Virus record (IMG/VR): IMGVR_UViG_2778261530_000007
Source: a virus
Taxonomy: Duplodnaviria; Heunggongvirae; Uroviricota; Caudoviricetes
Direction: 5' to 3' (one strand)
DNA: 37,462 nucleotides
Shown: piece after piece, positions 6,083 through 35,809 of the stretch
How the letters are laid out: the number at the start of each line of letters is the position of its first letter
Position numbering within the stretch: the stretch's first letter is position 1
Made by a program: the position numbers and the translations under genes
Notes under the pieces: model-generated
What the model was told of the DNA's origin: nothing
Database searches by the model: none
The model's input: the letters and a program-made list of their open reading frames with translations, nothing else

Positions 6083-6088
6083 TTAAAC

Positions 6089-6250: not shown

Positions 6251-6270
6251 ACCGCGCCAGCGGTTTTTTT
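6251..6270 (+). terminator. Rho-independent terminator (ACCGCGCCAGCGGT followed by T7)
   Basis: GC stem followed directly by TTTTTTT. Confidence 0.55.
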
Positions 6271-6449
6271 GTGCGTACCGTATCGCCACGTCGTTTTCGC
6301 ACACGAATTATGGTGGGGCGTATGGGGCCGACTTCGGTCGGGCCGGGTTCTTTGGTTGCCGGTAGTTCCAACCCTGTACGTCTCACCACCCCGAGCTTGG
6401 AACCTCTGGATGGTGAGTTTTCAAAACTTACAACCAAAGAGGCCACACC

Positions 6450-6680: not shown

Positions 6681-6752
6681 TTCCTGTTCCGGGCCTTTCC
6701 TGCACCTTGCGGCGGGAGGCCTTCGCACATCTGTAACAAGAGGATTGCCGCA

Positions 6753-7118: not shown

Positions 7119-7124
7119 ATCACT

Positions 7125-10987: not shown

Positions 10988-11299
10988 ATGACGACACCAA
11001 CCAGACGGATAAGTTTCTATCTGAAGCCCGCCGCCGTCAAGAACGAAGGTGAAGCATGCGCCTGGCTGGACAGCCTTACACCAGAAGCGCGCAAAAGCGG
11101 CCAACGCGTGGCTTTTCTGGCCGGGCTGGCACTTCTGAAAATGAATCCGGCAGAGGCTTACCGACTGGCTGCATGGGCTGATGATGAAGCGTTATCAGTG
11201 ACACAAACCAGGACAGAACGCCCCGCGTCACAGCCAGTATCAACCGCACAGATAACCAGTCAGATGGCCGGAAATATCCGGGCGTTATTTCCCGAATAA
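10988..11299 (+). CDS. parR: ParR-like partition adaptor protein
   Basis: Immediately downstream of parM with AAGGAG RBS; motifs shared with R1 ParR as recalled (RRISFYLKP vs RRTIAFKLNP; FLAGLALL vs LTAGLALY; IRALFPE vs ILRSLFPKE). Confidence 0.7.
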   Translation: MTTPTRRISFYLKPAAVKNEGEACAWLDSLTPEARKSGQRVAFLAGLALLKMNPAEAYRLAAWADDEALSVTQTRTERPASQPVSTAQITSQMAGNIRALFPE

Positions 11300-11304
11300 C
11301 ACAA

Positions 11305-11328
11305 CATCAGGGCGCATCCGCCCTGATG
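11305..11328 (+). terminator. Perfect hairpin (10-bp stem CATCAGGGCG / CGCCCTGATG, 4-nt loop) between parR and the ZBD gene; terminator, attenuator or protein-binding palindrome
   Basis: Inverted repeat read from the sequence. Confidence 0.4.
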
Positions 11329-11864: not shown

Positions 11865-12272
11865 TTAAATATAATCTTCTTCGTAGTCGCTGATTAATTC
11901 ATTGCCATAATCAGACAGCAATTTCAAAGCAAAGGTAACTTCCTCAAGGGTAGCTATCCCCATTGCTGAAAACACCGTTAATTTAACCAGCAGCAGGGAG
12001 TTTGAAAGTTCGGAAGAGTTCATCATTAAAAATATTGATGCAGCCTGAAAAGCTGTGCGTTTATTCCCATCATGAAAGGCATGAGCCTTGGCTATACCAA
12101 TCAAATACATAGCAGCCAGAGCATGAATATCATCAACCCCTTCATAGTAGTGTAGTGTCCTGACGCGATTTAAAGCACCTTCAAGTAGCCCGTCATTGGC
12201 ATTTCCGCTCTGGGGTAAAGTTTCAGCATGGATACGTTCTACTTGTTCTTTTGACAAAAACACTATGTCCAT
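11865..12272 (-). CDS. doc: Doc (death-on-curing) Fic-fold toxin
   Basis: Fic/Doc signature HAFHDGNKRTA; start overlaps the stop of the upstream antitoxin gene (TGATG). Confidence 0.85.
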   Translation of the reverse strand: MDIVFLSKEQVERIHAETLPQSGNANDGLLEGALNRVRTLHYYEGVDDIHALAAMYLIGIAKAHAFHDGNKRTAFQAASIFLMMNSSELSNSLLLVKLTVFSAMGIATLEEVTFALKLLSDYGNELISDYEEDYI

Positions 12273-12628
12273 CAGTTATCCTCAAGCTTTTTAATGATAT
12301 CCGCATGTTTTTCTCTTGTACGCTTCATTGCATCTTCAAAAGACAATCCTTTTTTTCTCTGTGCGACAAGAGCTGGATGACGTTTTTCCAGATCTCTCAC
12401 TGCATTTATTAAGAGTGGTTGCTTCATTTTGTTTATTTGATCCCGCAGTTTTTTGGTTTTGCCAAGGACAGCCCGTATTTCAGGACTAAGATCAGAACCA
12501 GCAAGAACAACATCCTTCCCTCCCTGCGCCGTGATAACGACACTGCCACCGGAAGAAAGGTAATCCAGAATTTCACTCAGGTTCTCACGAAATTCATCAT
12601 CAGTTACAGTTTTCATATTCATTTCCAT
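12272..12628 (-). CDS. phd: Putative Phd/YefM-type antitoxin with C-terminal extension, cognate to Doc
   Basis: Upstream of and translationally coupled to doc; N-terminal region resembles the Phd/YefM fold pattern (EFRENLSEILDYLSSGGSVVITAQGGKDVVL). Confidence 0.6.
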   Translation of the reverse strand: MEMNMKTVTDDEFRENLSEILDYLSSGGSVVITAQGGKDVVLAGSDLSPEIRAVLGKTKKLRDQINKMKQPLLINAVRDLEKRHPALVAQRKKGLSFEDAMKRTREKHADIIKKLEDN

Positions 12629-12702
12629 TATGCACGCCCATAACGTAAGTATAACGGCTTGTTGGGCAGTAATAACACCGCCATATTTTCATTTTATACA
12701 CC

Positions 12703-12799
12703 GCACAATAGTGCACAAATTTGCACAATTTTTTTGAACAACTTTTTACCCTTCCGGCCCGCGTGGCGACTGGATCCGTCAAGGATCCGTGCGTGCACA
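12703..12799. repeat. Direct repeats of TGCACAA at 10-bp phasing (12703..12728) with a further copy at 12793..12799, plus GGATCCGT-N3-GGATCCGT (12772..12790), in the non-coding region between phd and Q
   Basis: Read directly from the sequence; function unknown (operator, packaging or centromere-like site). Confidence 0.35.
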
Positions 12800-13103
12800 A
12801 AAAAACGCGCTTTTTCTGCGCGCAGGTGACGGGGGAACAGCCCGCGTTTCAGGGGGTAAATAGCATCCCCTGAACGATGTCGCAGCGACACAACAGAATG
12901 GCTGTATTTCTCACGCTGAGCGTGAAAAAGACGTGAGGGCTTTTGATTTGATGGGGTGAAAGGTAAGGCCGTCAAAATCGCACTGAGACGGCGAGAACAT
13001 GCAGTCAACGCGGTGGGATTGCGTAAGAGTCTGACTGTCGATGATGGCAATAAGCAGGAAAGCGTCGTGAAATTATCTGATTGATACAGGAGCTGGAGAG
13101 TCG

Positions 13104-15950: not shown

Positions 15951-16104
15951 TGCTCCCCCTGAGTAATTACAGGAAGATTACCCGCGCGCGAAACTGTTCT
16001 CCTTAACCCCCTGTTCTGGCCGTTTTCTTACAACAAAAGCCCTTTGTATCAGCCTGTTACGCTTTGCCATCATGACTGAAGAACCAGTCAGAGGGGCAAA
16101 AACT

Positions 16105-16941
16105 ATGGCTAATGAAAAAAAGACATCCCGCAAAAAGTTTCGCGTGGCTGTCTCCGGATCAACTGTTGATGGCCGTGAAATCAGTCCGGTGCATCTGCGT
16201 GAAGCCGCCGAGAACTTCAACCCGGATGTTTACGCTGCCCGCGTGAACGTTGAGCACTATCTCTCGCCATGCCCATCAAGCGAATTTTCCGCAATGGGCG
16301 ATGTCACCGCACTGAGTACGGAAGACATTACGGAAGGTCCGCTGGCCGGACGTACTGCGCTGTATGCAGAAATCGAACCGACCGAGCGCATGAAGCAGCT
16401 TGTCGCGGACGGCAAGAAAATCTATTCCAGTATCGAACTGCACCCGCAGTTCTCCGTTAACGGGCGCGCCTATCTGGTCGGGCTGGCGATGACCGACACC
16501 CCGGCAAGCCTGGGCACTGAGCGCCTGAAATTCACGGCACAGCAGCGTCAGGCGGTGATGACGTTCAACAGTATCCAGGGTGAAGCACCGCTTATCTCCG
16601 AAGCCATCGAGTCTGAAATCATCGAAATGGCAGAACAACGCCAGGAAGAAGGCACCCAGTGGTTTAACCGCGTAATGGGGATTATTGGTCGTGGCCGCAA
16701 AGCGGATGACGCCAGTTTCTCCCGTATTCAGGAAGCGGTGGAAGGCGTCGCAACGTCACAGGCCGACATTATCGACCGTTTTAATGTGCTGGAAACCCGC
16801 CATCAGCAGGACCGCCAGAAAATCACGTCACTGACCACAGAGCTGACAGCACTGAAGGAAAAGCTGCGCACGCAGGACGGCGATCCGCAGAACCGGTTCA
16901 CCGCAACGGGCGCAGCCTCCGACCAGCTGGCTGACTTCTGA
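16105..16941 (+). CDS. O: Capsid scaffolding protein (P2 gpO); start placed at the ATG preceded by a GAGGGG RBS
   Basis: Similarity to P2 O as recalled (KKFRVAVSGSTVDGREISP, YLVGLAMTDTPASLGTE). Confidence 0.85.
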   Translation: MANEKKTSRKKFRVAVSGSTVDGREISPVHLREAAENFNPDVYAARVNVEHYLSPCPSSEFSAMGDVTALSTEDITEGPLAGRTALYAEIEPTERMKQLVADGKKIYSSIELHPQFSVNGRAYLVGLAMTDTPASLGTERLKFTAQQRQAVMTFNSIQGEAPLISEAIESEIIEMAEQRQEEGTQWFNRVMGIIGRGRKADDASFSRIQEAVEGVATSQADIIDRFNVLETRHQQDRQKITSLTTELTALKEKLRTQDGDPQNRFTATGAASDQLADF

Positions 16942-19985: not shown

Positions 19986-20374
19986 GCAACACATTTAAAT
20001 TCAGCAGCCGGAGCGAAAAGAATTTGCAGGGCGTAAATCCTGATCTGGTGAAAGTGACCCGACGGGCACTGGAAATCTCGGAAGTGGATTTTGGTATCAC
20101 CGAAGGGTTGCGCAGCCGTTACCGCCAGAAGCAACTTGTGGCCACAGGTAAGAGCCAGACCATGAACAGCCGCCACCTTACGGGGCATGCCGTGGATGTT
20201 GTGGCTTATATCGGCAGCCAGGTGTCATGGGAATGGCCGCTGTACGAAAAAATCGCAGCAGCATTCAGACAGGCCAGCCGGGAACTGAATATTCCGGTGG
20301 AATGGGGCGGCGACTGGAAGACCCTGAAAGACGGACCGCATTTTCAGTTACCACACGGAGCCTATCCGGCATGA
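19982..20374 (+). CDS. Endolysin, peptidase M15 (VanY-like L-alanyl-D-glutamate endopeptidase) type
   Basis: Zinc-site motif SRHLTGHAVDV; position in the lysis cassette. Confidence 0.8.
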   Translation: MSNTFKFSSRSEKNLQGVNPDLVKVTRRALEISEVDFGITEGLRSRYRQKQLVATGKSQTMNSRHLTGHAVDVVAYIGSQVSWEWPLYEKIAAAFRQASRELNIPVEWGGDWKTLKDGPHFQLPHGAYPA

Positions 20375-20778
20375 AGCTCTGGCCCACGCTGGGCGTCGCT
20401 TTCCTTCTGATTGCCGCATGGGGAACATCCATGCGTCTGTCGTGGTCGCTGGGCCGGGAGAACGCCAGAAACGAAGCGCAGGCCAGCGCCCTGAAAAGTA
20501 CCGTCGACACCCTGAATATCATCAGCACCGGGGTACAGGATATGCAGCAGGTGCTGGCGCAACTCCGCGTGGAAAATCAACAGCGAAATCAGGACGGAGA
20601 GGCCAGACGTGAACAGCTACGCAACGATATTGCAAAAGATGAATGCGCCCACGCTTTGCCTGACGCTCGTTTTACTGACAGGTTGCGCAGGCACGCAGAA
20701 CGCGCCACGGCCAGCGCCGTCAGTCCGGCTTATACCGCAGACGCTGACCATACCGGTAACGCCTCCCCCCTTCCCTGA
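20371..20778 (+). CDS. lysB: Inner-membrane spanin (LysB / Rz-like)
   Basis: N-terminal TM helix then coiled-coil; contains an embedded out-of-frame lipoprotein ORF. Confidence 0.7.
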   Translation: MKLWPTLGVAFLLIAAWGTSMRLSWSLGRENARNEAQASALKSTVDTLNIISTGVQDMQQVLAQLRVENQQRNQDGEARREQLRNDIAKDECAHALPDARFTDRLRRHAERATASAVSPAYTADADHTGNASPLP

Positions 20779-21383: not shown

Positions 21384-22011
21384 GGCATTCACCCGCGTGG
21401 ATGAAACCTTTGAGGCCATCCGCGACAGCCTGAATCAGCAGGCCATCAATAACATCGCCAGAAAGCTGGCACAGGATTTACGCCGCGCCCAGCAGGCGCG
21501 CATCCGGTCACAGAAAGCGCCGGACGGGACCGCGTGGACACCACGCAGACGCCGCGTAACCCGGATACAGGAGCGCATTCGCTTTATCTGGAATAACGAA
21601 GCACGCACGCTGAAAAACTGGCATCACGACACGGGGAAATACGGGCGAACCATCACCGGGTGGGATGAGGATAAAAACACCATCCGCACGTTTTACCGGG
21701 ATGACATCGACCGCTTTCTGGAAATACGCACCCGGCGCATCAACCAGGACAGCACAAAGCGCGTCCCCATGTTCGTAAAACTGCGCACCGCCCGCTACCT
21801 GAAAGCCCGTGCAGATGCTTCCGGTGTGACGGTGGGTTACAGCGGCGTGGCCGCACGTATTGCACGCGTTCATCAGTTCGGTGAGCGCGATCAGGTTGCG
21901 CCGGGCATTTTCACCGATTACCCGGTACGTGAGCTGCTGGGTATCAGCCAGGCAGATGAGCGCCTGATTTATAACACGGTGCTGGGCCGGATTGCGGAGG
22001 CTGTACGGTGA
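21376..22011 (+). CDS. S: Tail completion / virion morphogenesis protein (gpS position)
   Basis: Position between R and V; ATG overlaps the R stop. Confidence 0.7.
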   Translation: MDKAFTRVDETFEAIRDSLNQQAINNIARKLAQDLRRAQQARIRSQKAPDGTAWTPRRRRVTRIQERIRFIWNNEARTLKNWHHDTGKYGRTITGWDEDKNTIRTFYRDDIDRFLEIRTRRINQDSTKRVPMFVKLRTARYLKARADASGVTVGYSGVAARIARVHQFGERDQVAPGIFTDYPVRELLGISQADERLIYNTVLGRIAEAVR

Positions 22012-23836: not shown

Positions 23837-24356
23837 TTCGTTATTACCACCATCAGCCAGCAATTTCATGCGTTGTGCCGAAGCCGTCGGAACACGCATT
23901 ACAGACATTCCGGTAGACCTCAACACGCTGTGGTCGCCGGACACCTGCCCGGTGCATCTGCTGCCTTATCTCGCCTGGGCATTTTCCGTTGACCGCTGGG
24001 ATCGCAACTGGCCGGAAGAGACAAAGCGACAGGTGATTCGTGATGCATGGCTGATACACCGACACAAGGGAACCATCAGCGCACTGCGCCGGGCCATTGA
24101 GCCGCTGGGATACCTCATTCGTGTGTCTGAGTGGTGGGAGTTCGGCGGAGAACCTGGAACATTCAAGGTTGATGTTGGCACGCTGGACAGTGGTGTGACC
24201 GAGGAAATGTATCTGGAAATGGAACGGCTGATTGCCGACGCCAAACCCGCAAGTCGCCACCTTATCGGCCTGAACATTATCCAGGACATTCCTGGCTATC
24301 TGTATACAGGCGGTGTGGTCTGTGATGGTGATGTTATTACTGTTTATCCCGGATAA
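23829..24356 (+). CDS. I: Baseplate / tail protein I (P2 gpI)
   Basis: Strong similarity to P2 I as recalled (LWSPDTCP, LLPYLAWAFSVDRWD, ERLIADAKPASRHLIGLNI, GDVITVYPG). Confidence 0.9.
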   Translation: MSNSLLPPSASNFMRCAEAVGTRITDIPVDLNTLWSPDTCPVHLLPYLAWAFSVDRWDRNWPEETKRQVIRDAWLIHRHKGTISALRRAIEPLGYLIRVSEWWEFGGEPGTFKVDVGTLDSGVTEEMYLEMERLIADAKPASRHLIGLNIIQDIPGYLYTGGVVCDGDVITVYPG

Positions 24357-24366
24357 GTGAGAAACA

Positions 24367-27141
24367 ATGAGCACGAAATTTAAAACCGTTATCACTACTG
24401 CCGGAGCCGCAAAGCTGGCAGCTGCCACTGCCCCCGGCGGGAAAAAAGTAACCCTGTCTGCAATGGCCGTGGGTGACGGTAATGGCAAATTGCCGGTGCC
24501 GGATGCCGGTCAGACGAAACTGGTGCATGAGGTCTGGCGTCACGCTCTGAATAAAGTCAGCGTGGATAACAAGAATAAAAACTATATCGTGGCTGAACTG
24601 GTTGTACCGCCCGAAGTGGGCGGCTTCTGGATGCGTGAGCTTGGTCTGTATGACGATGCCGGAACACTGATTGCGGTATCCAACATGGCAGAAAGCTATA
24701 AACCAGAACTGGCTGAAGGCTCCGGACGTGCGCAGACCTGCCGCATGGTTATTATTGTCAGTAACGTGGCGTCTGTTGAGCTGACTATTGATGCCAGCAC
24801 AGTGATGGCGACGCAGGATTACGTCGATGACAAAATCGCAGAGCATGAGCAGTCCCGCCGCCATCCTGACGCCACGCTGACAGAAAAAGGTTTTACTCAG
24901 TTAAGCAGTGCAACAAACAGCACCAGTGAAAAGCTGGCGGCAACGCCAAAAGCGGTCAAGGCAGCAAATGACAACGCAAATTCACGTCTGGCGAAAAATC
25001 AGAACGGTGCAGATATCCAGGATAAATCAGCTTTTCTGGACAATATTAGTGTTACCAGCCTGACGTTTATGAAAAACAACGGCGAAATGCCGGTTGATGC
25101 TGATCTGAATACATTTGGTCCTGTTAAGGCTTATTCAGGTATCTGGTCTAAAGCAACGTCCACCAACGCAACACTGGAGAAAAATTTCCCGGAAGATAAT
25201 GCTGTCGGTGTGCTTGAGGTTTTTACTGGCGGCAATTTTGCAGGCACGCAACGCTATACCACACGTGACGGAAATTTGTATATCCGCAAACTCATTGGAA
25301 CATGGAATGGTAATGATGGACCATGGGGAGCATGGCGCCATGTTCAGGCTGTAACGCGTGCTCTAAGTACGACCATTGACCTTAACTCTCTCGGTGGCGC
25401 AGAACATTTAGGTCTATGGAGAAACAGCAGTTCAGCAATAGCTTCTTTTGAACGACATTACCCTGAGCAGGGAGGAAACGCGCAGGGCATTCTGGAAATT
25501 TTCGAAGGTGGGCTATATGGACGCACGCAGCGTTATACAACCCGTAACGGGACTATGTATATTCGCGGCCTGACAGCCAAATGGGATGCAGAAAATCCAC
25601 AGTGGGAAGACTGGATCCAAATTGGTTATCAGACCAGTAGTACCTTCTATGAGGATGACCTGGATGATTTGATGTCTCCGGGTATTTACAGTGTGACAGG
25701 CAAAGCGACCCACACCCCAATCCAGGGGCAGTCTGGTTTTCTGGAAGTCATCAGGCGCAAGGATGGTGTCTATGTTTTGCAACGTTACACGACCACAGGA
25801 ACCAGCGCAGCTACAAAAGACCGTTTATATGAGCGAGTGTTTCTTGGTGGCTCATTTAACGCGTGGGGGGAGTGGCGACAGATTTATAACTCAAACTCTT
25901 TGCCGTTAGAGTTGGGCATCGGTGGCGCTGTGGCAAAACTCTCCAGCCTGGACTGGCAGACCTACGACTTTGTGCCGGGCAGTCTGATAACCGTTCGGCT
26001 TGATAACATGACCAACATTCCCGACGGTATGGACTGGGGCGTCATTGATGGCAACCTGATAAACATCGCAGTTGGTCCGAGTGATGATTCCGGTACGGGG
26101 CGCTCAATGCATGTATGGCGCAGCACTGTAAGTAAAGCCAACTACCGCTTTTTTATGGTGCGTATTTCAGGAAATCCGGGAAGCCGCACGATCACGACAA
26201 GACGTGTGCCAATTATCGACGAAGCTCAGACATGGGCGGCGAAACAAACCTTCAGCGCCGGTCTTTCAGGCGAACTGTCCGGCAATGCGGCTACAGCTAC
26301 AAAGCTGAAAACGGCAAGGACAATTAACGGCGTGAAATTTGATGGTTCTGGCAATATCAATATTAATACGCTGGTATCCAGGAATCGCGTTGCTGCATTA
26401 AGCGGGAGTGAGAAGGGGGTGCCTGGTATTCAGATGTATGAGGCATATAACAATGGCTACCCTTATGCCTATGGCAATGTGCTTCATCTTACGGGGGTAT
26501 CCGCAACCGGAGAAGGTGAGTTACTTATCGGCTGGAGTGGAACCAGCGGTGCTTATGCACCAGCATATATTCGTTCAAGGCGGGATACAGATGGCGCTCA
26601 ATGGTCTGGATGGGCACAGCTTTATACGACAGCACATAAACCATCCGCTGGTGATGTTGGTGCTTTACCGATATCCGGTGGCACTATTACAGGCGGTTTA
26701 ACTGTTGATGGGGAAGTTGTTTCAAGGTCAGCAAACGGTTATCGCATCGTATGTGGGAACTATGGATTCTTTATCCGAAATGATGGTAATTTCACCCATT
26801 TCATGTTGACCAACTCCGGTGACAGTATGGGGGGATGGAGTAGTTTAAGCCCATTCTATATTCAGAATTCCACTGGTGGAGTCACTATTGGCCATGGATT
26901 AACTGTTGCCGGACAAGTTGTGCCAAGTAACTACGGTAATTTCGACGGGCGTTATGTGATGGATGTTCGCCTGGGAACACGTGTTGTTCAATTGATGGCG
27001 CGTGGCGGGCGTTATGAGATGGCCGGACACACAATTACCGGATTAAGAATTATTGGTGAAGTTGATGGCGATGATGAAGCCATCTTCAGACCGATACAAA
27101 AATACATCAATGGCACATGGTATAACGTCGCACAGGTGTAA
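24367..27141 (+). CDS. H: Tail fibre protein H, mosaic: P2-like N- and C-termini with a divergent repeat-containing central region
   Basis: N-terminus ([25 protein letters not shown]) and C-terminus ([63 protein letters not shown]) match P2 H as recalled. Confidence 0.9.
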
Positions 27142-27144
27142 GTT

Positions 27145-27672
27145 ATGCAGCATTTAAAAAATATAAGGTCAGGAAATCCGAAAACCATTGAACAATATCA
27201 ACTAACAAAAAAATTCGACGTTATCTGGTTATTTTCAGAGGATGGAAAAAACTGGTATGAAGAGGTAAAGCATTTTCAGGAAGACACAATAAAGATTGTT
27301 TACGATGAGAATAATATTATTGTCGCCATTACCAAAGATGCATCAACGCTTAATCCAGAGGGGTTCAGCGTCGTTGAAGTCCCTGATATTACCGCCAACC
27401 GACGAGCTGATGACTCAGGTAAATGGATGTTTAAGGACGGTGCCGTGATTAAGCGGATTTATACGGCAGACGAACAGCAGCAACAGGCGGAGTCAAAAAA
27501 GGCAGCTTTGCTTTCCGAAGCTGAATCCGTGATTTTGCCGCTGGAGCGCGCTGTCAGGCTGAATATGGCAACAGATGAGGAGCGCACACGACTGGAAGCC
27601 TGGGAACGCTACAGCGTTCTGGTCAGCCGTGTGGATACAGCAAAGCCCGAATGGCCACAAAAGCCTGAGTAA
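27145..27672 (+). CDS. G: Tail fibre assembly chaperone (P2 gpG family)
   Basis: Position directly after H; typical length (175 aa). Confidence 0.8.
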
Positions 27673-27890
27673 AAATTAAGCTCCGATATCGGGCCTTCTC
27701 TCATTCTGGTTGTTCGGGAAACGTTACTGGCAGGCCGGAGGTGTCTGTGGATTCGACTTTCTACGCGTAGAGCATCCATTCGGTTAATTTTTGTTTATTC
27801 TCGTCGGAAATGATGCCCAGCCGTAGCTGTGAGCCCCATAGGCGATATACAGACTGAAGAAACAACCAGGCAGATCCAGGAAAAAGAAAA

Positions 27891-27918
27891 CCGCTAATCT
27901 GAACATTAGCGGTTTTTT
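27891..27918. terminator. Bidirectional rho-independent terminator (CCGCTAATCTGAACATTAGCGG flanked by an A-run and a T-run) between convergent G and U
   Basis: Perfect hairpin with TTTTTT on the plus strand and TTTTCTTTTT on the minus strand. Confidence 0.65.
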
Positions 27919-27926
27919 GCGTTAAT

Positions 27927-28421
27927 TCAGAACAGCCCTTTAACTGAACTGGTTGCGCTGTTAAGAGATGATGTCACCTTATCTTTGAAGCCGGACAGCA
28001 TATCGCTGAACGATGAGGATTGCAGGCGCTCCCGCAAATCCTCATCACAGCGTTCAAGGGTCAGTGAAAATTCTATCTTTTTCGCCTTACCGTAGCGATC
28101 AAACTCGGAACGGGTCGTATTCGTTTCGGTCAGAACATACATGCCGTAAATCTGCCCGACGCCATCAATAAGAGGCCAGGGGCGTCCTGTATACGCCTGC
28201 GTGGTCAGCAGCGACAGCGACACTTCACCACCTGTAATTTCAGGATAAAGCACACCAGAAAGAACAATACGATCATCGCCTGCCCCGATATACTGCCAGC
28301 TTGCTGAACGGTTAACGCGTTCATTTTTCACATGTCGCCAGCTTTTATTTTGCTGTAACTGCTGATGCGGCAATGTGCGCAGCTCAAAAACAAACATGCC
28401 GTAGATCATCATCATGGCCAT
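27927..28421 (-). CDS. U: Tail protein U (P2 gpU)
   Basis: Similarity to P2 U as recalled (FVF..P, GAGDDRIVLSGVLYPE, WPLI). Confidence 0.88.
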   Translation of the reverse strand: MAMMMIYGMFVFELRTLPHQQLQQNKSWRHVKNERVNRSASWQYIGAGDDRIVLSGVLYPEITGGEVSLSLLTTQAYTGRPWPLIDGVGQIYGMYVLTETNTTRSEFDRYGKAKKIEFSLTLERCDEDLRERLQSSSFSDMLSGFKDKVTSSLNSATSSVKGLF

Positions 28422-28427
28422 GACTCC

Positions 28428-31277
28428 TCAATCTTTATCGTAAAAACTGCCACGTCCGGCACGGGCGCGCCGTTCCACCTCTGCCCTGACCATTTCACCG
28501 ACCAGTTTCGCCAGTTCGCGGGGATTCTGCGTAACAACGTTATGCAGATGAACATGAATTTCACCACCAAATCCGGAGGCAACAGGCTCCCGGTTACGGG
28601 AAGTTACAGGAACTGATGCCACTGGCGATCGTATGGCCTCCGCCACCGGGCGGGAGCTGGCCGCAACAACAGGGACCAGCGCCGGAGGCAGCGGAGCCGG
28701 GACCACGGGTGTGATATTAATTGCGGGGGCAGGCTTACTGACATGCGCAATCTTCCGCTCCTGCCACTCCCCACGAACAGCAAGTGCGCGGGGCAGGTTC
28801 TTAAAGACAATATCGCCGGGGCCAATGCGTTTTTTCGTCTCATCAACCAGCTTACCTGTGTTATCAGCAATTTTGCTGAGCCTGCGTAGCGTACCGGTAT
28901 TGTTGTCTGTGAGCGGTTTGTTGTCTTTGGGTTTATCGCCTTTTTTGTCGTCGACCTTATCTGACGGGGCCGGGCCGGGAGTCCATGGTTTCTGAACCAT
29001 TTTCTTGAGAACCGGATCCCATTCCCACATTACAGGAGCCTTTGAAGCGTTCTCTATTTTCTTTCTCGCCCGTTCCGCTTCATCCGGAAGCACTCCGAGC
29101 TTTTCAAGTATCCACGCCAGTGAATCCATCAATGCTTTTGTTGGCGTCAGGACAAGCTCTATCGCTCCACCGAGTACCCTGCCGAATACCTCGCCAGCAC
29201 TGGTACATTTATCCAGCGTTTCCTTGCTGGACTCCATCGGTGACAGCAGCGATTTAAACCAGTTAAACACCTGGCTGATCCCGCTTCCGATTGTGTCAAA
29301 AACAGGACCAAACCGTTCAAAGGTTTCGCGCAACGGGGTCAGCCTTTCCATAATCCCGCTGAACACCCCGGCAAAAAATGCCCTGATGGGATCCCAGTAT
29401 TTCCAGATAAGAACGGCAGCTCCGGCAAGCGCAGCCACAATAAGACCAACCGGACTGAACAACGCCCCGATGGCGCCTCCCAGTAAAGAAACGGAACCCG
29501 TCACCATTCCCCACAGCGCAGGCAACACCCTGACGACATTCATTGACCGGGTAAGAATGTCAAAACCAAGACGCAGGGTGGCCAGCTTCCCGTAAAGCAC
29601 CCCAATAACCAGCGACAACGAGCCAATCGTTGCAGTCATTGCCAGCAACGCACCGCCTGCTATCAGTAGCTGGCGCGTCAGTACCGGATGGGCCTGCGCC
29701 AGCGAGGTGATTTTTTCAAGCACCCGCGTGAGCCACTGCGTGACAGAACGCAGCGGACCGTCAACCAGATCACTGATGCGAATACGAAGACCTTCCCATG
29801 CGCTGTCGAGATTTTTCAGGTCCCCATCAAGATTATCGGCCATTACTTTTGCGACGCGATCGGCCTCTCCCCTTGCCCCCTGCAATTCTCTGGTCAGTTT
29901 TTGCAGCTCTCCTGAACCAGCCGCCGCAACAAGCGTCTGCAAACCAACGAACGCCTCTTCTCCGGCGATGCCCTTGAAGAAGGAAACCTGGTCCACCTGT
30001 CCGTATTTTTGTGTCGCCTTATAGAGATCAAGCAGCACATCCTCCATCGGGCGCATTTTGCCTCTGGCGTCAGCAACTGACACCCCCAGCTCTTTCAGTG
30101 CATCAGCCGCAGCTTTTGGCGGTGATGCAAGGCGGGACAGACTTGCGCGCATGGCCGTACCAGCATCGCTTCCGCGAAGACCATTATTGGCAAGCATCCC
30201 GGCCATGGCCGCCGCTTCTTCAAGACTGATACCAAGTTTTGCGGCAACCGGACCGGTATACTTCATGGTTTCGCCCAGCGCGCGTAAATCAGTATTGGTC
30301 CGGGTGAATGCTGCTGTCAGCGTATCGCCAACACGGTCCATTTGATCGGCTGTCAGGTTGAACTGTGTGAGGATATTGGAGCCTATATCAGCCGTCTCGC
30401 CGAGTTCGACGCCACCTGCCAGCGCCATATTAAGAACACCGGGCAATGCGGCCTGAATGGCCTGCGGAGTAAAACCAGCCATTGCCAGAAAGCTCTGCCC
30501 ACTGGCGGCATCACTCGCAGTAAACTGTGTTTCAGAGCCAAGTTTTAACGCCTGCTCACGCAGCGCCTTAAACTGCGGGCTGTTTTTGTCGATTCGCGTC
30601 AGTGCCTGAACGCGGGACATCTCTTTGCCGAACCCGATCGCAGGCTGCAAAAAACGCCCGGCAGCATAGCCGCCCGCCGTTGCCGCACCAATTGCCAGCG
30701 CACCACCTGTTTTCAGTTTTCCCGCTGTTTCCTGCGCGCGCGAATACCGCTCACGCGCCCGTGTTACACGCGCAAGCGCCTGCCGTTCGCGTTCAAGCTG
30801 GTTGTTGTACTGTTCGGTGCGTCTGATGGCCTGCTGGATGGTGTTATCGCTGCCTGTCAGGGAAATGCCGTGGCGTTTCAGCTCTCCGCCAAGCTCCCGC
30901 ATTTTCTGAATTTCCCGTGTGCGCGATTCATTCAGGCGTTCAAGCCGGGTGCTTAACTGCTGCATCAGCTTTTGTTGTTTTTCGCTGAGCACTGTACCCG
31001 TGCGTTGTAACTGATTAAGGGCGTTAAGCTGGCGTCGTGCTTTCAATATGCCAGCATCCGCTTTACTGACAGCGTCACGGGCGCGCTCAAATGAACGCGC
31101 CTGACGCTCGAGATTTTTGATCGCCCCCTGCGTTCGCTGGATGGAGTCACCAAACTGCCCCATCAGGCGGCGGGCGTTTTCGGCAGGCCGGGTCAGCCTG
31201 TCAACGGCGCTGAAAGCGACCCGGATGTCAAGAGTCTTCATTGTCTGCATTCCCGCTGCGAAGTGCCGCCCGCTCAC
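28428..31277 (-). CDS. T: Tail tape measure protein (P2 gpT)
   Basis: 949 aa, coiled-coil N-terminus, Gly/Ala-rich hydrophobic core; position between E and U. Confidence 0.9.
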   Translation of the reverse strand: MSGRHFAAGMQTMKTLDIRVAFSAVDRLTRPAENARRLMGQFGDSIQRTQGAIKNLERQARSFERARDAVSKADAGILKARRQLNALNQLQRTGTVLSEKQQKLMQQLSTRLERLNESRTREIQKMRELGGELKRHGISLTGSDNTIQQAIRRTEQYNNQLERERQALARVTRARERYSRAQETAGKLKTGGALAIGAATAGGYAAGRFLQPAIGFGKEMSRVQALTRIDKNSPQFKALREQALKLGSETQFTASDAASGQSFLAMAGFTPQAIQAALPGVLNMALAGGVELGETADIGSNILTQFNLTADQMDRVGDTLTAAFTRTNTDLRALGETMKYTGPVAAKLGISLEEAAAMAGMLANNGLRGSDAGTAMRASLSRLASPPKAAADALKELGVSVADARGKMRPMEDVLLDLYKATQKYGQVDQVSFFKGIAGEEAFVGLQTLVAAAGSGELQKLTRELQGARGEADRVAKVMADNLDGDLKNLDSAWEGLRIRISDLVDGPLRSVTQWLTRVLEKITSLAQAHPVLTRQLLIAGGALLAMTATIGSLSLVIGVLYGKLATLRLGFDILTRSMNVVRVLPALWGMVTGSVSLLGGAIGALFSPVGLIVAALAGAAVLIWKYWDPIRAFFAGVFSGIMERLTPLRETFERFGPVFDTIGSGISQVFNWFKSLLSPMESSKETLDKCTSAGEVFGRVLGGAIELVLTPTKALMDSLAWILEKLGVLPDEAERARKKIENASKAPVMWEWDPVLKKMVQKPWTPGPAPSDKVDDKKGDKPKDNKPLTDNNTGTLRRLSKIADNTGKLVDETKKRIGPGDIVFKNLPRALAVRGEWQERKIAHVSKPAPAINITPVVPAPLPPALVPVVAASSRPVAEAIRSPVASVPVTSRNREPVASGFGGEIHVHLHNVVTQNPRELAKLVGEMVRAEVERRARAGRGSFYDKD

Positions 31278-31766
31278 GCCAGCTAACCACTTCGCCGGGC
31301 GTCATCATGAAGATTTCGGCGGGCGACCAGTTAAAAATGGCGGCGATATCTGCCACCAGATCTTCGATGTGCTCAAAGCACACCAGGGTGATTACGCTGC
31401 CGTCTCCTGCACGCTCTTCGCGCCAGAGTCTGGCTCGCTCATAAAATTTACAGCCACAGCGCACAACTGAATAAAATCGCGTGACGACATTTTTTTAATC
31501 ATCACTTCATCCAGTCGTGGCGAGGTCACGCGAGGCAACAGCGTAAACATGGTATCCGCTTTCAGATTCAGCACATCAGACAGCGACAGACCACGCAGGG
31601 ATCCAGCCTGCTCAATAGCCCCGGTGATCTCCACATACGTGATTTTTTCGCCACCACGCTCAATTGGTCGGGTCAGTTTTACGCCACGTTCGACAGCCAT
31701 ATCCTCACCTGCCGTCACATCATCCGCCACGGTGTTATTCCGGGTTTCAGTATCGATGTCTTTCAT
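31228..31766 (-). CDS. E': E+E' programmed -1 frameshift product (E body fused to the E' extension); predicted slippery site A7 at plus-strand 31490..31496
   Basis: The E' frame is -1 relative to E and opens at a TAA inside ATT-AAA-AAA-ATG (hand-checked); P2 is known to make E+E' by frameshifting. Confidence 0.6.
31392..31766 (-). CDS. E: Tail assembly chaperone E (P2 gpE)
   Basis: Position between FII and T; overlapping -1 frame ORF downstream. Confidence 0.85.
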   Translation of the reverse strand: MKDIDTETRNNTVADDVTAGEDMAVERGVKLTRPIERGGEKITYVEITGAIEQAGSLRGLSLSDVLNLKADTMFTLLPRVTSPRLDEVMIKKMSSRDFIQLCAVAVNFMSEPDSGAKSVQETAA

Positions 31767-31821
31767 CAGTTGTCTCCTTTTCAGTCAGAGGCGACGCACT
31801 GCGCCGCCTGCATATTACTTA

Positions 31822-32334
31822 TCAGCCAAGCCCGAGCGCGGAACGGATGCGATCGGGCACAATGTCCTTGCCGTCCTTCCGGTAAATGAAGTTCAGCAGG
31901 TCAATCTCCCACAACGGGCGATCGTTAACACTCAGCTTGTAGTAGGTGTTTTTAATGGCGTAAGTGTGTGATGTGGCTTCGCCCTGTTTGGCTTCCCCCA
32001 TATCAATTTCCGTCACACGTCCGCGCATTTCGACTTCATACAGGTCGCTTTCTGCATCGGTGTAGTATTCACCCGCAAAACGCAGCAGCGTGCCGTCAAT
32101 CGTGCCGCCATACTTAAGGAACAGCGCACGAACAGCTCCCCCCATAACAAAGCTCGCATCAAGCGCGGAGTCGTCCAGACCGAGATCAATACTTACCGCA
32201 CCCATCATGCCACCACCCCGGTAGCTGTCGGTTTTGCGCGTCAGCTTAGGCAGAGTGACGGACGTCACCTTACCCACTTCGTTTTCACCATCCACAAACA
32301 GCGTAAAAAAGCGAAGATGTTTTGGTACAGCCAT
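31822..32334 (-). CDS. FII: Tail tube protein FII (P2 gpFII)
   Basis: 170 aa, position directly after the sheath gene. Confidence 0.88.
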   Translation of the reverse strand: MAVPKHLRFFTLFVDGENEVGKVTSVTLPKLTRKTDSYRGGGMMGAVSIDLGLDDSALDASFVMGGAVRALFLKYGGTIDGTLLRFAGEYYTDAESDLYEVEMRGRVTEIDMGEAKQGEATSHTYAIKNTYYKLSVNDRPLWEIDLLNFIYRKDGKDIVPDRIRSALGLG

Positions 32335-33518
32335 CAGGCACCTCCCAGCACCGCAAATGCGGGACCAAAGAATTCATCAGTAAACGACTGGTAAAGCTCC
32401 ATGTCTTCCAGCGGGGGAACAGGCGTATATTTGTAGCGAATACGCACGCGCCCCTGACGTAAATTCGTGGTGCCGTTATCCACCACGTCATACCAGCACT
32501 CCGCACCAATCAGTTTCCCGGCAGTAACCAGCGAATCCAGTTTTGCCCTGATGGCACTGATAACATCCTTCACGTTCGCAGGCGTCAGTGGACTGTCGAT
32601 GGTTTCAAACTGCGCTTCCGCAATTGAATCAGCCAGCACCTGTGCGGTTCGGGTATACACCTCAAAGATGTAGGCGTTCGTTTCCGGTGTGCGGTTGCCC
32701 CAGAAGCGGAACCCGTTGCGACGAATAATGGTCGTGATTTCTTTGTTATTGAGGCTGTTGGCATCACTGTCTTCGGCCTGCAACGACCAGAACACATGCC
32801 TGGACATTCCCAGCACATTTTTAACCGGAACGTTGGACAGCGATTTGTGCCAGCCCTGCTCATGGTCAATGTACGCACGAAGGCCGCACGCATAAGCAGG
32901 CGCGGGGAACGTTTCGTTTTTGCCACTTTTCGGGTTGTAGGCGATGAAGTCAGGCCATAAGAGCATCACCTCACGTTCGTTGAATTTCTGGCGGTAGGTA
33001 ATCGCCTCAGCCATCGTGTTACAACCATGACATGTGGCATACACAAACGCGCGCAGTTTACCCGCAATCACGCACAGGGATTTTGTCACCGCCTCCGTGT
33101 CCAGCTCCGGCGCGGCCAGAATACGCGGACGGTATCCGATGCTTTCATCCTGCTCTGCAACAAGCAGCGCATACATCCCCGTATAGCTGCCGTCAGATTC
33201 AGAACCACCGATAACCAGTTGATCCTGCGTCTTTCCGTTTTCTTCTTTGTGTTCAGCCACGCGAACGACGATCACCTTTGTGCTCACCTGGTCTGCGATG
33301 GCCTTAAGCGCACGATAAAGCGTCCCCGTTGTTCCGCATTTTCCCAGCACGTCATTGACGCGGGTCAGCAGTGTGGGCTTGTTCAGCGGGAACAGCTCCG
33401 CATCCGCATCATCCGCCGTTGCCACGATACCGATAACGCTGGAATCAACATCGTTAATCGCTGTTACCAGGTCGGTATTTTCCGTAACACGGGCACCATG
33501 AAAACGAGTTTCACTCAT
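32334..33518 (-). CDS. FI: Tail sheath protein FI (P2 gpFI)
   Basis: Similarity to P2 FI as recalled (FPLNKP, LQAIADQ, KLRAF, YRQ, WPDF, LRAxIDxEQGWHK, LIRRxGFRFWGNRT, YTRTAQV, YxYTPVPPLE). Confidence 0.92.
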   Translation of the reverse strand: MSETRFHGARVTENTDLVTAINDVDSSVIGIVATADDADAELFPLNKPTLLTRVNDVLGKCGTTGTLYRALKAIADQVSTKVIVVRVAEHKEENGKTQDQLVIGGSESDGSYTGMYALLVAEQDESIGYRPRILAAPELDTEAVTKSLCVIAGKLRAFVYATCHGCNTMAEAITYRQKFNEREVMLLWPDFIAYNPKSGKNETFPAPAYACGLRAYIDHEQGWHKSLSNVPVKNVLGMSRHVFWSLQAEDSDANSLNNKEITTIIRRNGFRFWGNRTPETNAYIFEVYTRTAQVLADSIAEAQFETIDSPLTPANVKDVISAIRAKLDSLVTAGKLIGAECWYDVVDNGTTNLRQGRVRIRYKYTPVPPLEDMELYQSFTDEFFGPAFAVLGGA

Positions 33519-33675
33519 AGCTTCAGCCCCTTGTATCCGTTAAATGATTCGGCAACAATCATCACCCACCACGCGCGTAATCTCACCCCTGCGCCGTTCT
33601 CCCGACCCAGCGACAACAAAAAGCAGTAACCCCCTCCGCACGCACATGCGACCATGCCGCACAGGGAGGGAACAG

Positions 33676-34785
33676 ATGACCGACACCACCATGCAATTGC
33701 TCAGTCAGGGCACAGACCCCGTGAAAATGCCGGATTTTGATATTCTCGCGGAGGGTAAAACGCTGTCAGGCGTGGCAGAGCGCCTGATGAGCCTGTCACT
33801 GACCGACAACCGGGGATTTGAGGCGGACCAGCTCACCATCACGCTGGATGATGCGGATGGTCAGTTGCAGCTACCGCCACGGGGCGCGCGTCTGACGGTT
33901 CTCATTGGCTGGAAAGGGGAACCGCTGACAGAAAAAGGCACTTACATTGTTGATGAAATCGCTCACGAAGGACCGCCGGACAGGCTGACTGTTTCAGCCA
34001 GAAGCGCAGATTTTCGGGATGAATTTAACGTTAAACGTGAGGTGTCCTGGCATGATGTGACCCTTGAGCGTGTGGTATCCGCCATCGCTCATCGGTATAG
34101 TCTGAAACCACAAATCAGCGAAATGCTGATGGATATCGAAATCGACCACGCCGACCAGACCGAAGAAAGCGACATGTCCTTCCTTACGCGCATGGCGGAA
34201 ATGCTGGGCGCAATCACCACGGTAAAAAGCGGCAATCTGTTATTCATCATGCCAGGTGGTGGCGTGAACGCACAGGGCCAGCCGTTGCCCTCGTTCGCCA
34301 TTACACGCAGCAGCGGCGATCGCCATCAGTTCCGTATTGCTGACCGCGAGGCGTATACGGGGGTACGCGCCTACTGGCTTGATCTTAATTACGGGAAGAA
34401 GAAAAAAGTCAGCGTGAAACGCCGCAAACCGCCAAAACCCAAAAAGGAGAAAAGCAGCAGCCGTGAAGGTGATTATATGGAAGGCGCGGAAGGCAATGTG
34501 TTTGTGTTACGCAAGACTTATCAGAACGAGCAGGCAGCAAGACGCGCAGCGGCGGCAAAGTGGCAGCAGCTACAACGCGGAGCCGCATCATTCTCCATCA
34601 CGCTGGCGCGTGGACGTGCAGAACTCTACCCCGAAATGCATGGCACAGTAACAGGCTTTAAAAGCGAGATTAATAATCAGGACTGGATTATTGCAAAAGC
34701 CGAGCACACCATTGATAACAGCGGCTTTACCACACAGCTTGAGCTTGAAGCAAAAATCCCGGAATGGATAGCAGAAACAGAATGA
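33676..34785 (+). CDS. D: Tail / late control protein D (P2 gpD); start chosen at the ATG with a GGGAGGG RBS
   Basis: Similarity to P2 D as recalled (SLTDNRGFEADQL, ITRS.GDRH, WxxLQRG, SGFTTxLELE). Confidence 0.85.
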   Translation: MTDTTMQLLSQGTDPVKMPDFDILAEGKTLSGVAERLMSLSLTDNRGFEADQLTITLDDADGQLQLPPRGARLTVLIGWKGEPLTEKGTYIVDEIAHEGPPDRLTVSARSADFRDEFNVKREVSWHDVTLERVVSAIAHRYSLKPQISEMLMDIEIDHADQTEESDMSFLTRMAEMLGAITTVKSGNLLFIMPGGGVNAQGQPLPSFAITRSSGDRHQFRIADREAYTGVRAYWLDLNYGKKKKVSVKRRKPPKPKKEKSSSREGDYMEGAEGNVFVLRKTYQNEQAARRAAAAKWQQLQRGAASFSITLARGRAELYPEMHGTVTGFKSEINNQDWIIAKAEHTIDNSGFTTQLELEAKIPEWIAETE

Positions 34786-35219
34786 CCCGAATTAATTCAA
34801 TACGACAGTTGACTCTGACATCAGATATTCCGGACAGGGTCGTATTTTTGCCTCTGGACAAAGCAACTGATTATCTGAATCAGCTCAATAGCGCGCAGCG
34901 AATACTTCTGGAATCTGCTATCAGTGACCGACAGGCCATAGGCAAAGGAACGCTTTTTGCAATCAACGAAGGAAGAATAAAAAAAATTTGCAAGGAAGTC
35001 ATAAAACACAATATGCGAGTCAAGGAAGCAATAAACATTGCTATGCAACCGGACAATCTTGCTCGCTTGTTCCCAGACAATCCTGAACAAAGAGCCCGTT
35101 ACAGGAGTTTATTAATTTGTTTTGGTCGGGCTATTGCCCAAAGTGAATTTATTGCCCGCGATATAATTAATGCGATGGAGCAATGCACTGCCTCATTCAC
35201 CGAACATCTGGACCAATAG
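34782..35219 (+). CDS. Hypothetical protein (145 aa) in an AT-rich moron between D and ogr
   Basis: ORF with ATGA overlap to the D stop; AT-rich composition; no recognisable motif. Confidence 0.5.
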   Translation: MTRINSIRQLTLTSDIPDRVVFLPLDKATDYLNQLNSAQRILLESAISDRQAIGKGTLFAINEGRIKKICKEVIKHNMRVKEAINIAMQPDNLARLFPDNPEQRARYRSLLICFGRAIAQSEFIARDIINAMEQCTASFTEHLDQ

Positions 35220-35275: not shown

Positions 35276-35536
35276 ATGTTCCGTTGTCCGCTTTGTGGCG
35301 CATCTGCCCGTATCCGCACCAGTCGTCCGGAAAATGATTCAAACACCGTGCGGCAAAAGTATTACCAGTGTAACAACCTGGAATGCGGCGTATGCTTCTC
35401 AACACTGGAAGCTTTCCATAAATTCACATCGAAACACGCCTCCGGCGTTCACTCTTCAGAAGGTATCCCGTGGCATGAGCTGCCAGCTTCGCACAGGGGA
35501 AACAATCAGATGAGCTTGCCTTTACCTCAGAATTAA
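35276..35536 (+). CDS. ogr: Ogr/Delta-family zinc-finger late-gene transcriptional activator
   Basis: MFRCPLCGASARIRTSR ... YYQCNNLECGVCF matches the Ogr C4 zinc-finger pattern. Confidence 0.85.
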   Translation: MFRCPLCGASARIRTSRPENDSNTVRQKYYQCNNLECGVCFSTLEAFHKFTSKHASGVHSSEGIPWHELPASHRGNNQMSLPLPQN

Positions 35537-35596: not shown

Positions 35597-35809
35597 ATGG
35601 TCGGAGGGAATACCCGAAGGCCGGATGTGGAAAGGCCCCGGAAAACATTTCTGTTTAACCGAGGCCCTGACCATACAACCTTCGCAAGTCGTAGGTTAGC
35701 GCCTCTCCAACAAAGGAGCAAGCGCTATGTCGCAAAAATCGCTTACGGCCATCACGTTCTGCGTGACGGCAATCCTCATCATCTGGATGCTGCACGGTTC
35801 GCTGTGTGA
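35597..35809 (+). CDS. mok: Mok-like overlapping reading frame of a hok/mok/sok-type locus
   Basis: 70-aa ORF overlapping hok in another frame, as in characterised hok/sok loci. Confidence 0.45.
   Translation: MVGGNTRRPDVERPRKTFLFNRGPDHTTFASRRLAPLQQRSKRYVAKIAYGHHVLRDGNPHHLDAARFAV

Follow-up and report, generated by a model that had tools for sequence, protein, structure and literature searches.

The window is the whole stretch of DNA analysed, 37,462 nucleotides, and it is an E. coli prophage of the P2 family, P88-like (Xuanwuvirus-type) and inserted beside serS. Structural and lysogeny genes of the P2 type are present in P2 order (tblastn and PHROG assignments), except for a block of tail genes from FI to U that is flipped. 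The features in and around the block, and one related site elsewhere, are as follows.

16013..16034, no strand: dyad GTTCT-N12-ACAAC in the P-O divergent spacer, matching that at 33596..33617; counterpart of the shared pP/pO activator site of P2
24367..27141, plus: tail fibre gene H (PHROG, tblastn)
27145..27672, plus: tail fibre assembly gene G, 89% identical to P2 G (PHROG, tblastn)
27701..27841, minus: remnant of G′, the alternative tail-fibre assembly gene of an invertible segment (alignment to P88, translation)
27842..27897, plus: remnant of the 3′ end of a DNA invertase gene, its product ending VSPIGDIQTEETTRQIQEKENR-stop (comparison with relatives, translation)
27885..27918, no strand: predicted bidirectional intrinsic terminator, 14-bp stem and 6-nt loop, A-run upstream and T-run downstream
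27927..28421, minus: tail gene U (PHROG, tblastn)
28428..31277, minus: tape measure gene T, longest ORF (ORF, PHROG)
31392-31766, minus: tail chaperone gene E (ORF, PHROG)
31228..31766, minus: E plus E′, the latter an ORF in the -1 frame that overlaps E and ends at 31228 (ORF layout)
31822..32334, minus: tail tube gene FII (PHROG, tblastn)
32334..33518, minus: tail sheath gene FI (PHROG, tblastn)
33519..33675, no strand: FI-D divergent spacer, proposed bidirectional late promoter
33596..33617, no strand: predicted Ogr-type activator dyad GTTCT-N12-ACAAC, centre 33606.5 (motif conservation)
33676..34785, plus: tail/baseplate hub gene D, 48% identical to P2 D (PHROG, tblastn)
35276..35536, plus: ogr-like late activator gene, Ogr_Delta zinc finger with the motif CX2CX24CX4C

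The N-terminal 207 aa of H are 85% identical to P2 H, the remainder being similar to S of P1, Mu and P7, and G is the final gene of the rightward baseplate/fibre operon. The start of T in the annotation of relatives lies ~36 nt further in, i.e. near 31241 in the window. A GpE family protein is annotated at the place equivalent to E/E′ in P88 and UTI89. The PHROG match to D begins at residue 43-45 of the long ORF, and therefore translation starts at the ATG at 33676, which follows GGGAGGG. The ogr-like product matches Pfam PF04606 with an E-value of 5e-14, and the match passes the curated cut-off.

The genes FI-FII-E-T-U run from 33518 to 27927 on the minus strand, and D resumes the plus strand at 33676 (ORF layout and PHROG assignments). 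On searching the window with the P2 proteins by tblastn, 25 of 35 were matched; from Q to int these are collinear and on the P2 strand, barring FI, FII, E, T and U, which are flipped as a single block with their internal order preserved. The canonical F operon of P2 (i.e. FI-FII-E-E′-T-U-D on one strand, downstream of G and co-directional with it) is absent from the window, where D is detached from the F operon. Every gene of the block is an intact ORF. An earlier note on this DNA had placed the block on the strand opposite to G and D, unlike P2, with coordinates that leave 254 nt between G and U (27673-27926) and 157 nt between FI and D (33519-33675); the ORF layout and the search with all P2 proteins bear out the orientation, and the same spacer lengths were recovered. 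The gene layout likewise agrees with its view that FI and D are divergent and need late promoters on both sides. A search for inverted repeats around the block gave only pairs of 16-19 nt, at chance level, with none bracketing it, in keeping with the note's observation on the two junctions. The lineages have diverged too far for the inversion breakpoints to be located to the base. The N-terminus of D (~18 aa) and the C-terminus of U are unalignable to P2, although U can be aligned over almost its whole length to canonical Klebsiella phages.

The flipped layout is also found in the isolated phages P88, Shae_phiSM, PhiR44_2 and SEN5, in Klebsiella phage Kp4871-3 and in E. coli UTI89, at the same serS site. 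PhiR44_2 has E. coli C as host in its record. P88 is inducible and phiSM is spontaneously active (PMC6456863). Among 5,426 complete E. coli genomes 603 are collinear with at least 80% of window 26500-35000, the best matches crossing both junctions, while a synthetic junction in the canonical orientation was found in none of the 5,426. Relatives were chosen by similarity of D, and the orientation is flipped in all 43 informative prophages, from more than 20 genera of Enterobacterales, with D identities of 63-98%. The canonical comparison consisted of six other genera, all with the canonical orientation. With this sampling, a canonical member within the clade, or another independent inversion in some other part of the family, could have escaped. 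Neighbour-joining trees of tblastn segments recover the inverted group as monophyletic in 100/100 bootstraps, both for FI+FII+U and, separately, for D; the agreement between block proteins and D points to one old inversion of the resident block. The flipped block is real, and is the fixed, inherited gene order of a large P2-related group (P88-like phages and their relatives) that makes working particles. This gene order is already known from deposited annotated genomes, not from a published description: the inversion is not mentioned in the literature found on Xuanwuvirus, P88, SEN4/SEN5 or phiSM, nor in a 2026 survey of P2-like virus diversity. A paper on a Xenorhabdus tailocin was set aside, as it deals with tail-fibre inversions and a sheath-adjacent variable region, which are a different matter.

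The nearest relatives are P88 and other Xuanwuvirus genomes (P884B11, Shae_phiSM/phiSM, PhiR44_2 and 500465-2) and the UTI89 serS prophage, with 92-96% nucleotide identity over 26500-35000; for the P88 type this is 92-93% over 91% of the 8.5-kb query, and the early region differs in places. Their gene order is that of the window, namely H G, U T E′ E FII FI (reverse), D ogr; their FI-D spacer is likewise 157 bp long and contains the same dyad, and in them too the terminator follows U. The full Xuanwuvirus order, i.e. H G (G′ H′ inv), reversed block, D ogr, is found in the window with the bracketed cassette as a scar. What sets the window apart from these relatives is an additional orphan ORF of ~450 bp, lying between D and ogr, and other cargo in the early region. 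SEN4/SEN5 (Salmonella, Senquatrovirus) and Kp4871-3 (Reginaelenavirus) also have the inverted block, divergent FI and D, and a 157-bp spacer with the dyad, but their D is 62-70% identical and their tail fibres and early genes differ.

The dyad in the FI-D spacer agrees with the TGT-N12-ACA consensus, which has been described together with a common PP′/PO′ site (PMC3931495), with one mismatch, the left half-site reading TCT and not TGT. An exact TGT-N12-ACA scan of the window gave seven matches, none in the late spacers; the dyads there were missed because they read TCT-N12-ACA, and they came to light when the P-O and FI-D spacers were compared by eye and the pattern was then searched for. Of the extended motif GTTCT-N12-ACAACAAAA the window has exactly two copies, one in each of these spacers; both dyads are one mismatch off the consensus and are conserved in relatives. 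In a generic sigma-70 scan promoter-like sites were less numerous than in shuffles and the spacer yielded nothing of use, as expected because the promoters would be activator-dependent.

On either side of the dyad lie -10-like hexamers, GATGAT on the minus strand (33563-33558) and GACCAT on the plus strand (33650-33655), both ending 48.5 nt from its centre. Late transcripts are predicted to start near 33551 (minus) and 33662 (plus), with a D leader of only ~14 nt. In the P-O spacer of the window the -10-like boxes are also symmetric about the dyad. The P2 record AF063097 annotates a single activator site for both pO and pP, and the two starts are each 55.5 nt from the centre of a GTTGT-N12-ATCCG dyad that we located inside that site.

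In 40 of 40 distinct FI-D spacers from relatives the dyad lies at one fixed column with invariant 12-nt spacing. The ACAAC half is retained in 39 whereas the spacer bases vary, and the dyad is present with at most two mismatches in 37 of the 40, compared with 5% of shuffles; in many relatives its left half has two mismatches. Conservation extends to the -10-like boxes on the two flanks. In inverted genomes the dyad lies 81.5-88.5 nt from the FI ATG; four of the canonical genomes had a dyad upstream of FI, and there the distance is 78.5-82.5 nt. In P2 the tail gene D is essential, and so presumably needs late expression. We infer that the FI-D spacer acts as one bidirectional late promoter, i.e. 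the F promoter moved with the block, with D on its other face. No description of this spacer as a second bidirectional late promoter was found in the searchable literature.

At the other end of the block, the hairpin at 27885-27918 can form on either strand (-16.6 and -15.7 kcal/mol; z -3.8 and -3.5), in each direction followed by a U-run, and it is conserved in P88, Shae_phiSM and PhiR44_2. By these properties it is the predicted terminator common to the G-side and U-side transcripts, so that the earlier reading of G and U as convergent across a bidirectional terminator holds. An alignment of 26929-27841 to P88 extends beyond G into the 3′ end of G′ (87%). What is left of G′ is the last 47 codons (LGIISDENKQKLTEWMLYA-stop-KVESTDTSGLPVTFPEQPE-stop, the in-frame TAG at 27761-27763), and of the invertase ~56 nt of the 3′ end; compared with Shae_phiSM, ~1.7 kb is missing between the two remnants. 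PhiR44_2 has the identical scar, while P88, Shae_phiSM and UTI89 retain the invertible G′/H′ cassette and a full invertase between G and U. An intact invertible tail-fibre segment of the Gin/Cin/Pin type (i.e. a serine invertase with crossover repeats bracketing H′/G′) is absent from the window, and no inverted repeats were found in 24300-28000, whereas P88 has pairs of 65-161 nt. The G-U junction had been described as free of cargo. That is correct for an intact cassette, but not for its remnants: by alignment, the "empty" junction is the scar left by deletion of the tail-fibre inversion cassette with its invertase, and the predicted bidirectional terminator comes after it.

We have considered other origins for the flipped block. 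The earlier note had raised a rearrangement of this prophage or a misassembly, allowing that the same orientation in close relatives would make it a lineage variant, and because close and distant relatives do have the same orientation, both readings are refuted. A recent private inversion that may have crippled this one prophage would fit the departure of its layout from P2, and the missing invertase and alternative fibre genes could suggest decay. Yet the identical arrangement is found in hundreds of independent genomes and isolated phages, the block genes are all intact and the spacer dyad and -10-like boxes are conserved, making such an event most improbable. For an assembly error that flipped a segment of the contig, a formal possibility, there is nothing specific in favour; both junctions recur at 92-96% identity in many independently assembled complete and phage genomes, the alternative junction is in none of the E. 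coli genomes, and we regard its chance as negligible. We likewise give practically no weight to the idea that the block is a programmed, reversible invertible segment. A Gin/Cin/Pin-type invertase does adjoin it in relatives, but this is on the canonical strand there and is therefore not part of the flipped segment, and the orientation is invariant in all genomes examined, including the window and PhiR44_2, which have no invertase. Moreover the long inverted repeats of P88 lie within the tail-fibre region around H/G-G′/H′ and not around the tail block, which has no flanking inverted repeats. Repeat-mediated and invertase-mediated inversion were both rejected on the chance-level repeat pairs.

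A foreign tail module from another phage lineage, inserted backwards, is somewhat easier to imagine than these but still improbable. Genomes of the P2 family are mosaic, and I, the N-terminus of H and G are much nearer to P2 (67-89%) than the other window proteins, indicating module exchange next door. However, FI, FII, E, T and U (33-46% identical to P2 by tblastn) have diverged like Q, P, N, V, W and D (42-48%), the flanking proteins overall being at 42-54%; the trees of block proteins and of D give the same inverted clade; and the distance of the pF dyad from FI matches that in the canonical relatives where it was found. Lastly, the lineage trait could be real while D has an independent promoter, or the dyad serves FI only. 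The imperfect left half-site in the window and the shortness of the predicted D leader would fit this, and we consider it a possibility, though an unlikely one, given that in 40 spacers a -10-like box is conserved towards D at a constant, symmetric distance, a geometry equal to that of the annotated common pP/pO site of P2, and given the presumed need of D for late expression.

The account that we prefer, to which as a whole we assign a probability of roughly 85%, is that of a P88-like prophage with one ancestral inversion, pF being carried along and shared by FI and D, and a cassette-deletion scar. One old inversion of FI-FII-E-E′-T-U would have taken place in the common ancestor of a large clade, with at least Xuanwuvirus, Senquatrovirus, Reginaelenavirus and prophages across Enterobacterales, and its orientation is fixed in the lineage and compatible with production of infective particles. 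The inversion would have taken the F late promoter along, so that pF would now lie between FI and D, the single Ogr-binding dyad at 33596-33617 driving FI-FII-E-E′-T-U leftward and D rightward, in parallel with the one activator site of P2 for divergent pP and pO. The leftward block transcript and the rightward V-to-G transcript would both stop at the hairpin at 27885-27918. A deletion of ~1.7 kb removed the alternative cassette (G′ and H′) and most of the DNA invertase, leaving the short G-U spacer and a tail fibre fixed in one form. As to why the inversion was fixed, we lean slightly towards the Ogr dyad being inherently two-faced: the orphaned D could have taken the unused face, with only a -10 box to evolve. 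If true, the case would illustrate in practice how a symmetric activator site can buffer a rearrangement that breaks an operon.

The F operon of P2 (FI-FII-E-E′-T-U-D from pF) has in common with the window its gene set and internal order, an activator of the Ogr family and, ~80 nt before FI, a TGT-N12-ACA dyad. The window differs in that the block is flipped, D has been separated from it and diverges from FI, there is no Z/fun and the proteins are only 33-48% identical. The FI-D spacer resembles the pP/pO region of P2 in having a single dyad midway in a short divergent spacer, and unlike P2 the window would have a second such region there. In Stenotrophomonas phage Smp131, also P2-like, the tail operons are rearranged and one TGT-N12-ACA site was read as PP′ and PO′ (PMC3931495). 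This is a different rearrangement (V moved between operons) in a distant host lineage, but it likewise shows that phages of the P2 family can vary in which genes belong to which late operon.

The prophage in the window, like PhiR44_2, can no longer switch its tail fibre and is confined to a single receptor specificity. A minor point is that the clade as a whole probably has a further divergent late promoter region, built round one activator dyad; the FI-D spacer may be a simple case of how an essential gene such as D, cut from its operon, can keep its correct late timing. The main import is for annotation. P2 synteny is not the sole normal layout in the family, so that an enterobacterial P2-like prophage whose sheath-to-U block is flipped should not be marked as damaged or misassembled on that account.

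The genes of the tail region were placed by an ORF map together with PHROG matches, as follows.

24367-27141, plus, tail fibre H
27145-27672, plus, fibre assembly G
27927-28421, minus, U
28428-31277, minus, tape measure T
31392-31766, minus, E
31822-32334, minus, tube FII
32334-33518, minus, sheath FI
33544-34785, plus, long ORF containing D, with its start at ATG 33676

The start of D is placed at 33676 because the family match within the long ORF begins only at residue 43-45 and the ATG is preceded by GGGAGGG. Homologues of 25 of the 35 P2 proteins were found by tblastn against the window; these follow the order and strand of P2, with the exception of FI, FII, E, T and U, which form a single flipped block with its internal order as in P2. 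These analyses bear out the earlier note, which had placed the block opposite in strand to G and D. The block is separated from G by 254 nt and from D by 157 nt, and a repeat search at its flanks found no inverted repeats bracketing it, again as had been reported. The prophage is a P2-family member with a P88-like gene order, and a single F operon is the only canonical feature of the family that it lacks.

The orientation is shared by relatives, so that this is not the rearrangement private to one prophage that the earlier note had considered. The closest phage genomes belong to Xuanwuvirus (P884B11, P88, Shae_phiSM, PhiR44_2 and 500465-2; 92-96% identical). Their matches lie on one strand, uninterrupted over both junctions, and their annotated order is that of the window, with H and G followed by the reversed block U T E' E FII FI and this in turn by D. 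Of 5,426 complete E. coli genomes, 603 match at least 80% of 26500-35000 collinearly; the best hits cover 433-8286 of the 8,501-nt query and therefore include both junctions. The right flank of the window is serS, 99.1% identical to that of E. coli UTI89, where a prophage of the same layout occupies the same site. A scan of one genome per species gave 46 loci, and all 43 having both FI and D read U, T, E, FII and FI on the minus strand followed by D and ogr on the plus (D identity 63-98%). The hosts include Salmonella, Edwardsiella, Serratia, Erwinia, Pantoea, Klebsiella, Kosakonia, Brenneria, Pectobacterium and Symbiopectobacterium, among others. The inverted layout also occurs in Salmonella phage SEN5 (Senquatrovirus, D 62%) and in Klebsiella phage Kp4871-3 (Reginaelenavirus, D 70%), while P2, Kapieceevirus, Felsduovirus (SopEPhi), Dagavirus, Arsenicumvirus and Entnonagintavirus are canonical (D 48-52%). 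A synthetic canonical junction (the 3′ end of G and the G-U spacer, joined to the FI-D spacer in flipped form and the 5′ end of FI) provides a direct test of orientation polymorphism; it was found in none of the 5,426 E. coli genomes, the best matches covering the FI half only. Some phages with the inverted layout are known to be active, P88 being inducible and phiSM spontaneously produced (PMC6456863). The deposited record of PhiR44_2, also inverted, gives E. coli C as host.

Two loci labelled as Firmicutes (Vagococcus sp. WN89Y and Planococcaceae bacterium UBA3378) have the same tail block and a D 98-99% identical to that of the window; contamination of those assemblies is the most likely source of this enterobacterial-type D. 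At the Trabulsiella odontotermitis locus (L049, 1246-2936) the I gene and H N-terminus are on the opposite strand and adjoin an invertase, and D is fragmentary; the locus either has been rearranged further or belongs to a prophage in decay.

Inverted genomes form one group with 100/100 bootstraps both in a tree of FI+FII+U (38 inverted and five canonical taxa) and in a separate tree of D (45 inverted and six canonical). The trees are neighbour-joining, built from tblastn segments, with relatives sampled by D similarity and a canonical comparison set of six genera. The block proteins are 33-46% identical to those of P2 by tblastn, and the surrounding genes are similarly distant (Q 48, P 44, N 42, V 46, W 44 and D 48%). 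One old inversion of a resident block is the simplest reading, rather than a foreign module inserted backwards.

At the G-U junction a hairpin at 27885-27918 folds stably on either strand, has U-runs after it in both directions and is conserved in relatives, in agreement with the bidirectional terminator proposed between the convergent G and U. The rest of the spacer is, on alignment, a scar. The window aligns without break to P88 over 26929-27841, through G and as far as the 3′ end of G', an alternative tail-fibre assembly gene in the opposite orientation; from 27839 onward its match is to the terminal 59 nt of the invertase gene of Shae_phiSM, followed by U. Translations of the spacer agree with these remnants (minus strand, ending in LGIISDENKQKLTEWMLYA, a stop, KVESTDTSGLPVTFPEQPE and a stop; plus strand, ending in VSPIGDIQTEETTRQIQEKENR and a stop). 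Compared with Shae_phiSM, about 1.7 kb has been lost, comprising the remainder of G', the variable part of H', a crossover site and most of the invertase, with an overlap of only about 3 nt at the join. Inverted repeats of 65-161 nt are present in the tail-fibre region of P88, and there are none in that of the window. The same scar occurs in PhiR44_2 and several E. coli prophages. The junction is therefore empty of cargo now, as had been noted, but it formerly held the invertible cassette usual for the lineage; with the cassette deleted, the tail fibre of this prophage is locked in one form.

Cargo is found elsewhere. Between D and ogr, 34764-35219 (plus) is an insertion of about 450 bp with an orphan ORF of 145-151 aa lacking any Pfam or PHROG match. 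P88, PhiR44_2 and UTI89 lack the insertion, and in them ogr lies within about 45 nt downstream of D. A search of 5.8 billion proteins yielded only nine homologues, from E. coli, Morganella and Vibrio; NCBI names them SufA, although no Fe-S scaffold domain was detected. The insertion probably represents a rare moron that occupies a second site for cargo. A low-GC region (0.44) between the replication/partition genes and portal gene Q, corresponding in position to old/tin of P2, encodes a Fic/Doc-family toxin and Phd/YefM-like antitoxin pair plus an unassigned 118-aa ORF (11865-12628 and 12694-13050, both minus), with weak PADLOC hits to the candidate defence families PDC-S23 and PDC-M59B. Downstream of replication gene A, as in P88, 10024-11299 (plus) encodes a ParM-type actin-like segregation protein and a Plasmid_stab_B protein, which suggests that phages of this lineage might be maintained as plasmid-like episomes. 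At the right end of the prophage by serS (35597-35809, plus), P88 gp52 and UTI89 annotate an equivalently placed gene for a Hok/Gef-family host-killing peptide.

The inversion is ordinary and plain in many deposited annotated genomes, including the widely used reference strain UTI89; the available literature on P88, SEN4/SEN5, phiSM and P2-like virus diversity does not comment on it. Another operon rearrangement in a P2-like phage is that of Smp131 (PMC3931495).

The P2 GenBank record has one "activator binding site; pO, pP promoters" at 3057-3087 and puts the starts of the P and O transcripts at 3016 and 3127, each 55.5 nt from the centre of the dyad located within that site. In the window GTTCT-N12-ACAACAAAA is common to the P-O and FI-D spacers, the only two exact copies in 37 kb. 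Its core, GT[TCT]-N12-[ACA]AC, has one mismatch to TGT-N12-ACA, the late-promoter consensus of the P2 family (cited in PMC3931495). For the scaffold gene O the longest ORF is 16072-16941, but the start at 16072 has no ribosome-binding site; ATG 16105 lies behind AGGAG, fits both the N-terminus of P2 O and the 278-aa protein annotated in P88, and leaves space for transcription to begin 55 nt from the P-O dyad.

A third dyad-like element, GTGGT-N12-AGAAC at 20442-20463, lies inside the Rz-like spanin gene (20227-20778) and is identical in P88 (18642-18663). It matches the opposite strand of the FI-D dyad at 20 of 22 positions, including 11 of the 12 spacer bases, far above chance. S and V overlap (22008-22011), leaving no spacer where P2 has pV; the element could be a late promoter within the operon that serves the genes from R to G, or else a sequence copied from elsewhere in the phage. 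GTTAT-N12-ACAAC at 11284-11305, at the end of the partition genes, has one mismatch to the late dyad and is conserved in P88 (10116-10137), but may be a chance match.

When 40 distinct FI-D spacers from relatives were aligned, the dyad occupied one fixed column block with invariant 12-nt spacing. ACAAC is retained in 39 and a perfect GTTGT-N12-ACAAC is present in 11; 37 have no more than two mismatches, compared with 5% of shuffled spacers. The 12 intervening bases vary freely, and the pattern as a whole is typical of a protein-binding dyad. The dyad centre is 81.5-88.5 nt from the FI start codon in inverted genomes. For P2, SopEPhi and two Klebsiella phages the corresponding distance upstream of FI is 78.5-82.5 nt, and given these similar values the F promoter appears to have moved together with the block. 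In the Shewanella and Erwinia phages the region upstream of FI gave no convincing dyad. The start of D, on the other side, is 69.5-76.5 nt away from the centre, and a conserved box lies at a fixed distance from the dyad (consensus CGCGCGCGTGAAATCAT; window ACGCACATGCGACCAT). The remaining elements are as follows.

33563-33558, minus, -10-like hexamer GATGAT, ending 48.5 nt from the dyad centre at 33606.5
33650-33655, plus, -10-like hexamer GACCAT, ending 48.5 nt from the same centre
35276-35536, Ogr/Delta zinc-finger gene

Because of the position of the hexamers, transcripts are predicted to start near 33551 and near 33662, at about 55.5 nt from the centre, which is the distance for pP and pO of P2. 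By inference, the FI-D spacer is a putative second bidirectional Ogr-dependent late promoter. A symmetric activator site shared by both sides would allow D to keep its late expression after separation from its operon, and this is the one modestly new idea to come from the analysis.
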